Below, piece after piece: positions 454 through 6,939 of a stretch of 13,684 bases of DNA. The stretch's first letter is position 1. The number at the start of each line of letters is the position of its first letter. The notes below the pieces were generated by a model. It did no database searches and was not told the origin of the DNA. It saw only the letters and a list, made by a program, of their open reading frames with translations. This DNA is from a virus (lineage: Duplodnaviria > Heunggongvirae > Uroviricota > Caudoviricetes), in IMG/VR virus record IMGVR_UViG_2563366959_000001, positions 1 to 13,684 of that record, one strand, 5' to 3'. Both the position numbers and the translations under genes were made by a program.

Positions 454-495
454 CCACACGATAACAACACAACAATATCAGTATCTCATGCTATT

Positions 496-520
496 GCCCG
501 AACCCATTCGGGCATTTTTT
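496..520 (+). terminator. Rho-independent terminator (GCCCGAA-CCCA-TTCGGGC followed by A + T6)
   Basis: 7-bp GC-rich stem, 4-nt loop, six T run at 515-520. Confidence 0.55.
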
Positions 521-521
521 A

Positions 522-553
522 CCCATAAAAAATGCCCCTCCGGAGAGGGGCAT
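522..553 (-). terminator. Rho-independent terminator for minus-strand transcripts (9-bp stem ATGCCCCTC/GAGGGGCAT, loop, then T6 on minus strand)
   Basis: Stem 532-540/545-553; plus-strand A-run 527-532 gives the U-tract on the minus strand; back-to-back with the 496-520 terminator. Confidence 0.55.
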
Positions 554-718
554 GTTTGCATGCACATTCTTTTTCTTGCATGGTGCCGGGTGCCTCCCGG
601 TGAATTCAGTATCAGCACCTGAATCCGCGATTATCACATATACCTGGTTGCTGATTGCCCCTCCGCACAGGGGGATTCACCATGCAGTAGTATTTTTAAT
701 AAACAGTAAACAAAAAAA

Positions 719-2591: not shown

Positions 2592-3253
2592 GCGCCTTCT
2601 CCCTGTACCTGAATCAATGTGAGGTTTCCGCAGAACACTGCGCCGGTATCTATATACATCTGGTTGGCAAACTTGAGTGGTTTCACTGCTGGCGTATGAC
2701 CAAAGATGAACGTGTCCGCGCCTTTGATTTCTTTCACGATCCCGTCTTGTGAGTTGCTGATTCGTTCGCGGTTCCAGATTACCTGCTGATGATCAACTGG
2801 CTTTCCAAACTCGTATTTATCACAAGGATAATCGGCGTGGCAGATGACATATTTTTTTCCTTTACTCACCAGTTCGATGATTAACGGAAGTTCATCTGCT
2901 TTATGGGCAAGAGCTTTAGCCAGAATTTCTTTGTCGTAATCGAGATTAAAGAACCAGCCACCGCCATTAAGCAGCCAGTGATTGACGTTTCCACGCTCTG
3001 ATAAGCCATCAATCATCATTTGCTCATGGTTTCCACGTACAGCTCTGAACCAGGGGAATGTGATTAATTCCAGGCATTCTACGTTCTCTGTACCGCGATC
3101 AACCAAATCGCCCACCGAGATAAGCAGGTCTTTTTTGGTGTCGAATCCTATCGTCTCCAGTTTTTTCATCAGGTTCGTGTAGCATCCGTGCAGATCGCCA
3201 ACTACCCAAATATTTCGGTATTTGCTGCCATCAATTCTTTCGTAGATATTCAT
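2588..3253 (-). CDS. ninI: Ser/Thr protein phosphatase (lambda phosphatase, NinI/orf221 family; calcineurin-like metallophosphoesterase)
   Basis: 221 aa; motifs GDLHG, GDLVDRG, GNHE characteristic of PPP-family phosphatases; stop overlaps Q start. Confidence 0.95.
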
Positions 3254-3855
3254 GCAACCTCACTTCTGCTGTTTCGCAGTTTTTTAAGTTTCTGTTGATA
3301 CTCCGCCTTGATGGCCCTGCACTCTTCGACAGTCCAGCGATAGCGGTTATGGTTTGATTCGATTTCCTCTACTGCTTCCTGCCCGATGCGGCTAATCAGT
3401 TCGACGCGATACGGAACGAGATTTCCGCTTTTGTGCTGGTTGCACACCACGCATTGCTTGTGAATATTGCGTTCATCAAATCGGAGTTGAGGTGCCGCAG
3501 CAGTTGTCCGGTAATGTCCGGCATCCCACTGAGCAGACGTGAGCGTTCCGCACGAGATACATGGTAAGTCGCGGTCTCTTTCTCTGATGAAGGCGTTTAC
3601 GGCTTGTTGGGCTTGTTTAATCCAGTAACTGCGGGGCTTTAAGGCGAGTTTTCGAATCTTAATTTTATCTTTCTGTTTCTGCTCCTCTCGTCGTCGTTTC
3701 TTCTCTGCTGTTTTTTCCGCCTTTTCGCGTTCTTTATTTCGTCGTTCGAGCGCTAATTTAGTTCCGTGTTCCGGGCTGCACCACCACTGATTTGAGAATG
3801 CCGGGTGAAACCATTCCTTACAGATTTTGCATTTCCTTCGCGCTGGTTTAGCCAT
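3250..3855 (-). CDS. ninG: NinG/Rap recombination-associated protein (Holliday-junction/branched-DNA endonuclease family)
   Basis: 201 aa; N-terminal Cys motif [10 protein letters not shown]...WWCSPEHG, lysine/arginine-rich linker, conserved C-terminal Cys/His cluster; synteny just upstream of phosphatase and Q. Confidence 0.9.
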
Positions 3856-4583
3856 TAAGCAGCCTCCCCTGTTACTTTAAGCATTCCGTTATCGAGCAGC
3901 TTTCTGGTCAGCCACTGTTGACCACGCCCGGTGATTTTTGTGGTGAACGATATCTGTATTCCGTGATTTGTATTGACCGCTGTTTCTTTCACTGTGAAAT
4001 AGCCGCGATCCATATATTCCTGCATTGGCACATTGCGCCGGGCACCTGAAGCAATAAGGATTTTGTGTTCGCGCATCCACGCAAACAGTTTGTTTGGACC
4101 AATACCAACAACCTTTGCATAGTTTCCAATCAAAATTCCGCTGGCCTCGCCAACGCGATCGGCAAACTCAACTTTAGGTGCGGCAATTGCGAGCTGGTTT
4201 TCCAGTTGCATTTTCTGCTCAGCAAGATCAGCAGCAAGGCGCAACGCTTCTGGTAGAGTTTTGGGGATATTAACCGCAGCGTCTTCAAGCTCTCGCCAAC
4301 GGTCAACAAGACGAGCGGTGAATTCCGGCGACAACTGGGCAACGACAATAATGCTGTCTCGCTTACCTTGTTCGCCTTCGAATACATACACACGAAAACT
4401 TTGATTTAAGCCTAACCCATTGATTCTTCCACAATCCTCAATTTGAGGATGTCGGATAACACCATTTTTAGCCAGCATTTCGATAGTACGTTTCACATTG
4501 TCATGACGCTTACCTGTAAGCTCAGAGATTTCAATGCTGGTCATTTTGATGACGTTGCTATTTATCAGCTCGTTCATTGTCAT
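3855..4583 (-). CDS. Phage antirepressor-like protein (Rha-type N-terminal domain + KilA-C/ANT C-terminal domain; Roi-like)
   Basis: N-terminus [23 protein letters not shown] (Rha-like), C-terminus with ANT/KilAC-like block; likely true start at Met3 (ATG ending 4577) 8 nt after GAGG; stop overlaps ninG ATG (TAATG). Confidence 0.8.
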
Positions 4584-4651
4584 GTCCTCTCATATTGAAA
4601 ATTCACCAATAAAAAACCCAGCCGAAGCTGGGTTTGTTAAGTTGTCAATTG

Positions 4652-5356
4652 TCAGTAGCGATGTAGTGAAGGAGGTAATTCTTTGTTCTTAAGCCTTACC
4701 CATGCGGAAAGATTCGTTGGTCCGTCTGGCTCATTAATATCAACATCTCGTGTGTGATTGATTAAAACGTCTCTCGCCATTCCAATAACATACGAGAACT
4801 CATGACCGTAGTCGTAACATCTGCCGGAATAGTTCGATTGAATTTGCTTTAGCGCTGGATACAATTCGCGGAATAATGCCTGTGAGCGGTTAGCATAATC
4901 CCACAGCCATACAAGGCTGTCTGTTTCTTTTGCGGAAAGCCCGTTGAGCTTCTTCTCTTGTTTGCCAGTATTTTTCTCGCACTGGCTGAAATAGCAGTCT
5001 TCCAGTTTTTCGAACACTTCCCACGCCTGATCGGTTTCGAGCATTTTGGCGTGACGGGCTGCTCCGCGTTCTGTCCAGAGGATGAGGGAGCGGGCTTTCG
5101 GGGAAATTTGTAACCCTCTTAAAGATGGTTGCAAATTTTGTGAGTTACTTAAAGTAACCCGCAAAATTTTCAACTCATCACCAACAACCTTGAAAAAGTG
5201 TTTACCCTCAACAAAACGCTCGGAATTACGGGTGTAATTTACTTTGATGTTGTTGATCTCGGTACAGTAAAGCTGTGCCAGTAACTCGGTAGTGATAACG
5301 GGAATTTGGTTGTGTGTAATTGGGGAAAGAGTTTCGACAGAAATCTGAGTGGCCAT
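4652..5356 (-). CDS. ORF6N/KilA-N-family DNA-binding protein (phage regulatory protein)
   Basis: Conserved block ...[34 protein letters not shown] typical of ORF6N-domain proteins; start placed at [10 protein letters not shown] (ATG at 5354-5356) with GGAG 8 nt upstream rather than the longer track ORF. Confidence 0.7.
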
Positions 5357-5513
5357 AACGATAACTCCGTACATTTGGACATTATCGCCACCGTCAGGTG
5401 CTAATCATCATGGTGGCGAACTGTGCGGGGTTAGCACTACCGGGTACGGAAACCGGCGAGCCTTTCGGCTCCCCCACACAGCCCGCCATAAATCGCGAAT
5501 GTGACTGTGCAAA

Positions 5514-5548
5514 CGATATGAAAAAAGACGCGGGCGCGTCTCATATCG
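5514..5548 (-). terminator. Rho-independent terminator in the nin region (inner hairpin GACGCG-NN-CGCGTC followed by T6 on minus strand, nested in a longer inverted repeat CGATATGA...TCATATCG)
   Basis: Read directly; on minus strand GACGCGCCCGCGTC is followed by TTTTTTCATATCG. Confidence 0.5.
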
Positions 5549-5633
5549 CTCCGTAAACATCCGGGGTGCTAATCCCGACGCCAGATTTTGCTGGCGCGTG
5601 AGGAATATAGCCCCGAATAAATCATCGCGTCAA

Positions 5634-5816
5634 TCACCTTGTTTTCCTCGCACGATGTCTTAGCCACCGGATATCCCACAGATGAGCCGTGCAGTTGAAG
5701 GTTTTTACGTCAGATTCTTTTGGGATTGGCTTGCGTTTATTTCTGGAGCGTTTCGTTGGAAGGTATTTGCAGTTTTCGCAGATGATGTCGGTGATGCTTC
5801 GTCGCTGTCGCCTCAT
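5634..5816 (-). CDS. ninE: NinE family protein (60 aa)
   Basis: Translation [60 protein letters not shown]; ATG overlaps the methyltransferase stop (ATGA). Confidence 0.8.
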
Positions 5817-6340
5817 GCCGCCCTCCTGACGCCCTGCCCGATCGCCATCAATGCCGCTTTGGATACAGTAGTAAACATTCGTCGAGGACTGATGAACGGT
5901 CGCCAAATCAGCAGCATGGAGCCTTTGCTGTTTCCCTTCTTCTCCAGCCCTGTCGATGGTTCGATAAAATTAATCCGTCCATCAGTGATAATGCGAACTT
6001 CGTCAACACTCTCCAGAGCCTTGCTGAACCATCCGACTGACATATCCTCTGGCACAAGCATCACTACCGTCTGTCGCTGTTGTATGCACTGCTCAGCGGC
6101 TTTTTCCACCCACGGCCTGATATTGCTGTACGGTGGGTTATTCCAGATTGCACCGTGGCTTATCCACTCAGAATTTAGCGCGTCGTCGGCCTCAGTTAAC
6201 CAGTGAGCGCACAGAGCATTTTTGTCGCTCGCTGCCGAATCCAGCCAGAATCCAAACTCAATATCCAGTGCATCAAAAAGCCAAAGCGGCGTTTGCCAGC
6301 AGTCCTTGTCGTGTGATGGCGTATTTGATTTGATAGTCAT
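5813..6340 (-). CDS. Phage Dam-family DNA N6-adenine methyltransferase (orphan, no adjacent restriction enzyme)
   Basis: 175 aa from [25 protein letters not shown]...; NPPY catalytic motif (motif IV of amino-methyltransferases); occupies the ninC position; ATGA overlaps at both ends. Confidence 0.85.
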
Positions 6341-6939
6341 GCAGCCCGATCTCCCCATCGCGCTTTCATTTTTTCATTTGCAAATCGCCAGAATCTTCCT
6401 TTGTGATATGAGCTTTCGCCATTACAGCAACGACTAATTGACGAACTATCAAATCCTTCTCTGACAGCATCCATAGCTGCTTCATAATAAACCTCCTCCC
6501 CAGTTTTCATGTCAGTAGAAATAACAGCTTTACTGGCAGGATGGTCACCACTAAATTTACCTAGCGATATAGGTATTCTTCCATTTTGTTTATATCCGTG
6601 TTTTGAGTTTTCAGAATGTGATACCCATTCAAGGTTATCAGCCCTATTGTCATCTCTTCGCCCATTTTTGTGATTAACTACCAAGCCATCACAGAACCCT
6701 GTACAGAATGCTTTCGCAACTATCCTGTGGGCGCTGTATTTCTTACCGTATACCTTTATTTGAAGATATCCTGTCGACTTGCACTTGAATGGTTTTACAC
6801 TAGTGCCATTAATTATTTTCTTATATGGCCTCTGTCTGGTTGATGTTACTGTAACTTCCCTCGTAATAGACCTGAAATTTCCTTTATTGCTAACCTGATA
6901 AAATGGAATCCCTTCGATATCTACCCAAACCTCAATCAT
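6337..6939 (-). CDS. HNH homing endonuclease (NUMOD4-like N-terminus + HNH nuclease motif)
   Basis: N-terminus MIEVWVDIEGIPFYQVSNKGNFRS (NUMOD4-like), HNH core VVNHKNGRRDDNRADNLEWVSHSEN; GGAGG 4 nt upstream of ATG; AT-rich; C-terminal 9 residues KARWGDRAA look like a NinB C-terminus. Confidence 0.85.
   Translation of the reverse strand: MIEVWVDIEGIPFYQVSNKGNFRSITREVTVTSTRQRPYKKIINGTSVKPFKCKSTGYLQIKVYGKKYSAHRIVAKAFCTGFCDGLVVNHKNGRRDDNRADNLEWVSHSENSKHGYKQNGRIPISLGKFSGDHPASKAVISTDMKTGEEVYYEAAMDAVREGFDSSSISRCCNGESSYHKGRFWRFANEKMKARWGDRAA

Follow-up and report, generated by a model that had tools for sequence, protein, structure and literature searches.

The stretch of DNA analysed here, called the window, is 13,684 nt long and comes from a virus of the Caudoviricetes (IMG/VR record IMGVR_UViG_2563366959_000001); read on the minus strand, it is the early-right region of a lambdoid prophage. 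Two regulatory genes, ant and roi, lie between ninE and ninG in its nin region and, like all genes of this module, are on the minus strand. The spacer between ninE and ant, taken together with ant, is very probably a self-contained, RNA-controlled antirepressor cassette of the immI (c4) type of phages P1 and P7, in the IsrK-bearing form of Gifsy-1. The motif GTGCTAAYC, which occurs three times in the spacer, is the RNA-RNA recognition sequence of a P1-type C4 antisense RNA and of its two targets. The evidence from this analysis consists of matches to RNA families, the fold of the RNA, the complementarity of its sites to sites on either side, the three-way covariation of these sites among relatives, and the overlap of one target with the Shine-Dalgarno sequence of ant.

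Antisense RNA, targets and promoter in the ninE-ant spacer

The spacer (5375–5633) is 259 bp long. An earlier note on this DNA had described it as a GC-rich spacer of 260 bp, which is right for the length, but the G+C fraction (0.51–0.55) is only mildly raised relative to ant and roi (0.42–0.49). A scan against Rfam finds three RNA families in the spacer, each full-length, on the gene strand and above its gathering score, and the order of elements on that strand is a1b1, terminator, C4, leader and ant. The C4 antisense RNA (5409–5493, minus strand; RF01695) scores 78.8 bits, where the gathering score is 45, and covers positions 1–87 of the 87 in the model. In its minimum free energy fold (−49 kcal/mol, z = −5.9) a closing stem of 17 bp encloses two hairpins, and two stretches stay unpaired, the loop of hairpin 2, UUUCCGUAC, and the segment AGUGCUAA. 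The mature RNA is predicted, from its likeness to that of P1, to begin at a GG and to run from about 5487 to 5412 (76 nt).

The names of the sites follow the annotated P1 record, where the targets read 5'-a-b-3' and b2 lies on a Shine-Dalgarno sequence; all are on the minus strand. Within C4, b' (5444–5451, UUCCGUAC) occupies the loop of hairpin 2, and a' (5429–5437, GUGCUAACC; paired core GUGCUAA, 5437–5431) the unpaired segment 3' of that hairpin. Upstream, a1 (5566–5574, GAUUAGCAC; paired core UUAGCAC, 5572–5566) lies in the loop of hairpin 2 of an IsrK-like RNA, and is followed by b1 (5549–5555, UACGGAG), which is complementary to the b' loop over 7 contiguous pairs. Downstream, a2 (5398–5406, again GAUUAGCAC) begins 3 nt past the end of the C4 match, while b2 (5365–5372, GUACGGAG) forms 8 contiguous pairs with b'. 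The GUGCUAA of a' is complementary to the UUAGCAC of both a1 and a2 (7 pairs). The ant Shine-Dalgarno sequence, GGAG (5368–5365), is included in b2 and stands 8 nt ahead of the ant AUG. The a2 site is itself held in the loop of a 7-bp hairpin (CGCCACC/GGUGGCG, arms 5418–5412 and 5392–5386), analogous to one around the a2 of P1; it recruits the 3' strand of the stem that closes C4, and the two structures are therefore mutually exclusive. This hairpin is 100% paired in all 33 leader variants described below, with one compensatory pair. C4 and the ant AUG are 52 nt apart, with no icd-like open reading frame (ORF), and the only ORF running through C4 varies in both length and frame.

GTGCTAAYC occurs exactly three times in the 13,684 bases, where 0.13 occurrences are expected, and none of 200 shuffles reached three. 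The copies at 5566–5574 (a1) and 5398–5406 (a2) read on the plus strand and that at 5429–5437 (a') on the minus strand. The earlier note had thus counted correctly and had the copy at 5398–5406 in place, but put the a1 copy one base off and the inverted copy, given as 5450–5458, 21 bases off. Its suggestion that the motif might be the module's own operator, or a promoter element, is not borne out: the three copies are a1, a' and a2 of a C4 system, and the promoter is an element distinct from them. The b', b1 and b2 set, that promoter, and a second terminator between ant and roi had gone unnoticed.

The promoter of the cassette (5604–5633, minus strand) is of the sigma-70 type, with TTGACG (5633–5628), an 18-nt spacer and TATATT (5609–5604), matching the consensus at 10 of 12 positions. 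Its −35 element adjoins the TGA stop codon of ninE (5636–5634), and the predicted start, G5597, coincides with the base at which the isrK match begins. Both TTGAC and GGGGCTATATT are unchanged throughout the 33 leader variants, even where the upstream gene context differs. The promoter is homologous to PisrK of Gifsy-1 (TTGACA...GGGGCTATATT), removal of which lowers an anrP'-lacZ transcription fusion from 280 to 3 units (PMC4825925). Control by CI was rejected because there is no copy of ATAAC-N4-GTTAT, at up to 2 mismatches, near 5597–5640. LexA control, as for the Gifsy antirepressors, was also considered, and no CTGT-N8-ACAG was found in the spacer at up to 1 mismatch. Nor is there a tRNA or tmRNA in the spacer. 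ATAAC-N4-GTTAT is the sequence of the apparent CI operators of this prophage, with three copies between cro and cI (OR, 11513–11575), two more 1.2 kb off (OL, 12764–12802), and no copy elsewhere in the window at 0–1 mismatch; CI itself is encoded at 11587–12294.

From this promoter reads the IsrK-like small RNA (5521–5597, minus strand), which matches the Rfam isrK model (RF01394) with 74.4 bits (gathering score 50). It consists of hairpin 1 (5597–5578), hairpin 2, whose loop holds a1, a linker containing b1 and, last, a terminator. The c4-a1b1 family matches at 5610–5558 on the same strand with 49.8 bits (gathering score 46.7). Hairpin 1 is 100% paired across the variants, with 3 pairs changed on both sides. 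By the model match, and by a dedicated promoter and a Rho-independent terminator that are both conserved, the RNA belongs to the IsrK family, although the coupling of an orf45 to the antirepressor gene is not found in the window. The terminator (5521–5542, minus strand; GAGACGC-GCCC-GCGUCUU and a U-run) has its stem at 5542–5525 and its U-run ending at 5521; it is the one the earlier note had seen at 5514–5548, and it is real. Its stem sequence varies among the variants while the hairpin shape and U-run are retained. A second strong intrinsic terminator separates ant from roi (4608–4635, minus strand; AAACCCAGC-UUCG-GCUGGGUUU and a U-run). This terminator (4635–4614) is present, nearly invariant, in 23 of 23 distinct intergenic variants from 75 relatives. 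Because of this terminator, transcripts from the cassette promoter should not reach roi.

Concerted change among relatives

Relatives were collected by scanning IMG/VR with the Ant protein, which gave 80 loci (59–100% identity); a leader search over these yielded 79 matches, representing 33 distinct variants. The earlier note had proposed looking for GTGCTAAYC upstream of homologous modules, and the literal motif proved not to be conserved there, being replaced by six sequence classes. Within each set, a or b, the three sites change in concert, giving 6 a-classes and 6 b-classes that occur reassorted in 11 C4 types. Written as target/C4, the a-classes are UUAGCAC/GUGCUAA, UUGGCGU/ACGCCAA, UUUGCAC/GUGCAAA, UUGGAAC/GUUCCAA, UUAGGAAC/GUUCCUAA and UUGGCAU/AUGCCAA; the b-classes, each with its complement in the C4 loop, are UACGGAG, UCGAAACG, UCAACC, GAAAAAGG, CUACCG and GAAACC.

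In all 19 site combinations, a' forms 7–8 contiguous pairs with its own a1 and a2, and b' forms 6–9 with its own b1 and b2. Every variant has its cognate b2 (6–9 pairs) 9–14 nt upstream of the ant start codon. Over the 33 variants, pairing stands at 98.3% in both the a':a2 and the a1:a' helix, and in each of them both partners have changed at 4 of the 7 pairs. Within C4, pairing is complete (100%) in the closing stem and in hairpin 1 and reaches 96.4% in hairpin 2, and 9 pairs of these helices are compensatory, with both bases altered. When the partner is slid by one column, pairing over the whole tested structure falls from 99% to about 37%, and none of 500 shuffles matched the observed pairing values. 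The pairing tolerates G·U: in the commonest class, b1 (GAGACCG) and b2 (GAAACC) are unlike as DNA, and both pair with CGGUUUC. Between a-classes, GUGCUAA is predicted to pair weakly, by way of G·U, with UUGGCGU, and ACGCCAA is predicted not to pair with UUAGCAC. The a/b classes show no correspondence with the sequence of ORF6N, whose identity is 72.8% within a-classes and 71.7% between them. The pairing values are site-specific counts of contiguous pairs and counts over column pairs. They replaced whole-segment RNAduplex energies between C4 and the leaders, which were too noisy to tell cognate from non-cognate because the conserved GC-rich stems pair with each other.

A few relatives have more elaborate arrangements. 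One phage (L068, at 635–933 and 2220–2516, and L069) carries the complete isrK-C4-ant cassette twice, at a distance of 1.5 kb and on either side of NinB; the two copies differ in both a-class (AGCAC and GGCGU) and b-class (UCGAAAC and GAAACC). In others (L047 and L072) an isrK-C4 cassette is followed by a truncated ORF6N gene of 102 amino acids (aa). The same two loci carry sRNA-Xcc1 (RF02221, 76–79 bits; 2378–2461 in L047, 2370–2453 in L072) directly upstream of a full gene with ORF6N and P22_AR_C domains. Its unpaired GUUCUGAA is, by eye, complementary to UUCAGAA about 20 nt before the Shine-Dalgarno sequence of that gene, and sRNA-Xcc1 may thus represent another class of C4-like antisense RNA, directed at genes of the same family.

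Proposed mechanism and competing explanations

The proposed mechanism begins with constitutive transcription from the sigma-70 promoter beside the ninE stop codon, starting at about 5597. Most transcripts would end at the intrinsic terminator at 5521, leaving an IsrK-like RNA of about 77 nt that displays a1 in a hairpin loop and b1 in the linker. Read-through RNAs, and in lytic growth N-antiterminated transcripts from pR, would continue into C4, the ant leader and ant. As in P1, RNase P would probably excise C4 (about 76 nt), cutting at the GG at 5487. Acting in trans, its a' would pair with a2 and its b' with b2, so that the Shine-Dalgarno sequence of ant is hidden and ant remains untranslated. 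The IsrK-like RNA, bearing the same two target sequences, would compete for C4 and lift the block; the Ant then made would inactivate the prophage repressor and speed derepression, while the terminator after ant would insulate the cassette from roi. For the window locus, we infer RNase P processing, action in trans, titration by IsrK and the binding of Ant to CI from homologous systems; that Ant binds the CI repressor of the prophage is assumed from its P22 Ant domain and, by analogy, from the phenotype of phage Phi24B given below.

In Gifsy-1 of Salmonella, alone among the homologues, IsrK is known by experiment to switch on translation of the downstream antirepressor and to bring about prophage induction (PMC4825925). 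Its isrK-orf45-anrP locus has the same three Rfam elements as the window, and the promoter, IsrK, C4 (69 bits) and leader are homologous. AnrP is 65% identical to the window Ant over residues 1–124 (ORF6N) but lacks P22_AR_C, and the locus lies downstream of Q, whereas that of the window is between ninE and ninG. IsrK supplied in trans raises anrP translation about 140-fold, and mutations in a' lift its basal level from 4 to 484–926 units (PMC4825925). Binding of IsrK by Hfq is reported for Gifsy-1 only (PMC4825925). In lysogens of Gifsy-1, expression of IsrK and of STnc1160, which is the processed 'orf45' RNA, is high under all conditions tested (PMC7067206). For mapping the published mutations onto the Gifsy-1 locus (L085, 34131–34316), +1 was taken as the start of the Rfam isrK match. 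On that numbering, the IsrK mutations G28A and G31A (PMC4825925) fall within a1 (U26–U32), their 'orf45' partners C162U and C159U (PMC4825925) fall within a' (A158–A164), and the first AUG of orf45 (A107) coincides with the AUGG at which the closing stem of C4 begins on its 5' side. From the Rfam matches and these coordinates, IsrK and orf45 of Gifsy-1 are identified here with a1b1 and C4 respectively. The Gifsy-1 study (PMC4825925) makes no reference to phage P1, and no sign was found in it of a link between the locus and C4.

The same data can be read as the Gifsy-1 authors do, with the C4 region being mainly a translated leader ORF, orf45, whose ribosome-binding site is opened by IsrK, and with ant translationally coupled to it. 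For the window and its relatives this is rather unlikely, although in Gifsy-1 itself the case has substance: orf45 has 45 codons, starts at the AUGG 5' of the C4 stem and has a stop codon overlapping the anrP AUG; a tagged product was detected and a premature stop lowered activation (PMC4825925). The AUG at the 5' end of C4 is, moreover, invariant in 33 of 33 variants. That invariance, however, has an explanation in the closing stem and in the GG at which processing is known to occur in P1, and the Gifsy-1 ORF that overlaps the anrP start is not conserved in the clade of the window. There, the ORF that begins at this AUG may be as short as 14 codons or as long as 49 and is found in each of the three frames with respect to ant; its stop codon falls between 90 nt before and 19 nt after the start of ant. 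The version in the window has 31 codons and ends 37 nt upstream of the ant AUG. A conserved leader peptide was rejected for this clade on these grounds of length and frame. The variation is compensatory at the level of RNA and not codon-like. The Gifsy-1 double mutants in a1 and a' also bear on the choice, since they fail to restore repression and stay at 224–327 units, against 4 in the original (PMC4825925). Three sites predict this, because a2 was left unchanged in those mutants and must match too, which offers a reason why two-site compensatory mutants remained derepressed.

As DNA, GTGCTAAYC would be an operator, possibly for Ant or Roi, or part of a promoter of the antirepressor genes, which we regard as very improbable. 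Three copies in 180 bp, two direct and one inverted, are far over chance, ORF6N and Rha are both predicted domains of DNA-binding type, and the concerted change of three copies is equally expected of a set of operators with a co-evolving binding protein. The covariation taken alone therefore fits such operators too, and the RNA reading rests on further facts: homology to P1 c4, the location of a' and b' where a covarying fold leaves the RNA unpaired and of b2 on the Shine-Dalgarno sequence, G·U-tolerant pairing, classes that do not follow ORF6N, and the published genetics of the Gifsy-1 homologue. The copies coincide with a1, a' and a2 in a C4 system that matches Rfam models based on the antisense RNA of P1 and P7, itself proven by experiment, the inverted one being in the unpaired stretch of a fold backed by the compensatory pairs already described. 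The b sites, a set of unrelated sequence, behave in the same way and cover the Shine-Dalgarno sequence, while no copy of the motif overlaps the −35 or −10 element. Mutations at the equivalent positions in Gifsy-1 affect translational fusions, and those in a1 abolish the action of IsrK RNA given in trans (PMC4825925). Alternatively, the hairpins might be mere nin-region terminators of the kind of lambda tR2–tR4, making Q dependent on N, with the complementarities as ancestral relics and no control by small RNA. Two good intrinsic terminators do lie on the path from pR to Q, and the lambda nin region is defined by such terminators. Relics, however, would not hold three-way complementarity across 11 specificity types, nor retain an invariant dedicated promoter, and the homologous RNAs are abundant in Salmonella lysogens (PMC7067206) and functional in Gifsy-1 (PMC4825925). 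This explanation is accordingly given hardly any weight.

Some observations nevertheless weigh against a C4 cassette of the P1 type, apart from the ambiguity of the covariation. In Gifsy-1, mutations of a1 in cis raise basal translation from 4 to 93–218 units, which a pure decoy leaves unexplained, and the authors of that study favour alternative structures together with the translated leader ORF (PMC4825925). P1, for its part, has the icd ORF and a Rho-dependent polarity step that are without counterpart in the window.

Genes, distribution and related systems

The gene order in the window is CI/Cro, cII, O, P, NinB, an HNH endonuclease, Dam, NinE, the ant-roi region, NinG, a phosphatase and Q. 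The module is bounded upstream by ninE (5634–5816, minus strand; 60 aa), for which Pfam NinE matches residues 31–88 of a 90-aa ORF with 140.7 bits, and downstream by ninG (3250–3855, minus strand; Pfam NinG, 300.6 bits). The two regulatory-type genes that the earlier note recognised between them are confirmed by Pfam for all three domains named, ORF6N, Rha and KilAC. Its statement that they stand in place of ninF holds for the window, where no ninF-sized ORF occurs between ninE and ninG, but not in general, as some relatives (e.g. PA28) have ninF alongside ant and roi.

The product of ant (4652–5356, minus strand; 234 aa) is of antirepressor type, with an N-terminal ORF6N domain (PF10543, 69.2 bits) and the C-terminal domain of P22 Ant (P22_AR_C, PF10548, 95.5 bits); it matches PHROG 377, 'anti-repressor Ant', with 286 bits. 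From its first ATG the ORF extends over 4652–5374 (240 aa), but the conserved start is the ATG at 5356, from which sequence is shared among relatives and upstream of which they diverge. The product of roi (3855–4583, minus strand; 242 aa) has an N-terminal Rha domain (Phage_pRha, PF09669; 30.8 bits, just above the cut-off of 29.9) and a C-terminal KilAC domain (ANT, PF03374; 112.8 bits), and matches PHROG 63 with 321 bits. PHROGs classes both products as 'anti-repressor', and the gene pair is annotated in many Shiga toxin (Stx) phages and other lambdoid phages. The C-terminal half of Roi is 54% identical to Ant1 of P1. No sequence match to solved structures was found for either Ant or Roi. We propose that roi is a second antirepressor-type gene, reached chiefly by antiterminated transcription. 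The antirepressor role put forward in the earlier note is reasonable for ant, given 75% identity to Ant of the Stx phage Phi24B, the knockout phenotype in that phage and the P22 Ant C-terminus.

Elsewhere in the window, the HNH/NUMOD4 homing-endonuclease-type ORF (6337–6939, minus strand) is inserted between NinB and Dam, and an ORF further upstream (8193–8804, minus strand) looks similar to it in sequence. Downstream of Q, the anti-GcvB small RNA AgvB (459–520, plus strand) is a perfect match (Rfam, 96.5 bits) and abuts STnc100 on the opposite strand (521–711, minus strand; Rfam, 144.7 bits). AgvB and STnc100 are a small-RNA pair known from lambdoid prophages of enterohaemorrhagic E. coli (EHEC).

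The leader is common. Megablast finds matches in 733 of 5,426 complete E. coli genomes, at up to four places per genome and at least 888 places in all, and the leader is 100% identical to that of the window in at least 9 genomes, including O55:H7 and O111:NM strains. With so many genomes and up to four copies in each, any cross-talk between copies would be common. It is conceivable, though we hold it to be doubtful, that the a and b sites act as a combinatorial RNA 'address code', with at least 6 × 6 classes (11 combinations seen in the 33 variants), making co-resident lambdoid and Stx switches heteroimmune where their classes differ and coupled where these are shared. Two hints point this way: among 4 isolate genomes with two or three sampled prophages, the C4 types differ in 3 and are the same in 1, and the phage with two cassettes has different classes in each; together these are too small a sample to claim diversifying selection. 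If such a code exists, the C4 of one prophage would silence, and its IsrK unlock, the Ant of another that shares its classes. Co-induction of prophages in polylysogenic EHEC, and hence the output of Shiga toxin, would then be set in part by an IsrK/C4/leader RNA layer that is absent from current annotation, and of which the published IsrK/orf45, as a P1-type immI system, would be one instance. The locus itself is ordinary: many Stx phages have an annotated ant-roi pair, and for the RNA elements there are matching families already curated in Rfam. The new points are modest ones: the link of an Stx-type ant to a C4 switch, the identification of IsrK/orf45 with a1b1/C4, and a catalogue of reassorting specificity classes.

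Among Stx phages, Phi24B has the same layout of ninE, spacer, ant, roi and ninG, with a1b1/isrK and C4 elements in the spacer, and its Roi is 80% identical to that of the window. In a Phi24B ant knockout, late-promoter activity after induction is about 27–56% of wild type and activation is slower (PMC3064807). The RNA elements are not described in the Phi24B record, PMC3064807 or PMC3430580, and RefSeq annotates only 'NinE' and 'phage antirepressor Ant' over the stretch. The antirepressor studied in phages of this type thus appears to sit behind a P1-type C4 switch omitted from RefSeq and GenBank annotation, and this switch could affect how easily toxin-carrying prophages are induced. The microRNA-size RNA 24B_1 of Phi24B and its proposed target d_ant were considered and found to be unrelated to the locus, as they map to the late region, at 45.5 kb and 27 kb. 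In sequence, the leaders of the window and of the Phi24B group differ: the best match among Stx phages of that group, Min27, is only 87.4% identical. An E. coli-type leader closer than that of any Stx phage in the collection (96.9% identity) occurs in a record labelled 'Actinobacillus phage vB_Apl-pPE4' (PP818812.1, 15553–15811), a host label that looks odd for this sequence.

The window Ant is related to that of P22 over its C-terminal 104 residues (about 89% identity), and tblastn matches to P22-like phages span residues 131–234 only; the N-terminus, ORF6N in the window, differs. In the immI region of P22, ant is under the control of the sar antisense RNA, Mnt and Arc, whereas neither mnt nor arc is found beside the window ant. 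An antirepressor held down post-transcriptionally by a small antisense RNA, which has been shown for P22, is what is proposed here; sar, however, is a true cis-antisense transcript of the ant leader, while C4 is a structured RNA of another type. The APSE phages of Hamiltonella have isrK, C4, an antirepressor-type gene and a Rha-domain gene in the order of the window (PMC7313666), and their records annotate the small RNAs and the a' and b' sites. The first of these genes has a BRO-N domain in place of ORF6N and P22_AR_C, and the backbone is P22-like, in an insect symbiont.

The closest model for the regulation is P1, where C4 was shown to be an antisense repressor (Citron & Schuster 1990, 1992); C4 motifs in enterobacterial prophages were predicted in 2010 (PMC2864571). 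The P1 record (NC_005856) annotates a promoter, a1, b1, c4, a2, b2, icd and ant1/ant2, and the order in the window is the same, with similar spacing. Most of the features that define the C4 family are found in the window; what it lacks is icd, and with it the coupled translation and the Rho-dependent step. P1 is a plasmid prophage, that of the window a lambdoid one. The P1 promoter has a C1 operator, whereas no repressor operator was found at the window promoter. The window has an intrinsic terminator between a1/b1 and C4 and matches the isrK model, for which P1 is below threshold. The b2 site of P1 overlaps the Shine-Dalgarno sequence of icd; the window, being without icd, has b2 directly on the ribosome-binding site of ant. 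The regulated proteins also differ, ORF6N with P22_AR_C in the window as against the Ant1 type in P1, for which KilAC is the sole Pfam match. The RNA itself scores higher against the C4 model in the window (78.8 bits) than in P1 (68.8 bits). The c4 of P1 is annotated as 77 nt long and starts at GG, with which the GG at 5487 and the predicted 76 nt are compatible. In both, a' is in the 3' unpaired segment, b' is in the loop of hairpin 2, b2 is on a Shine-Dalgarno sequence and an antirepressor gene follows downstream. The a and b sequence classes, as determinants of specificity, resemble those behind the heteroimmunity of P1 and P7.

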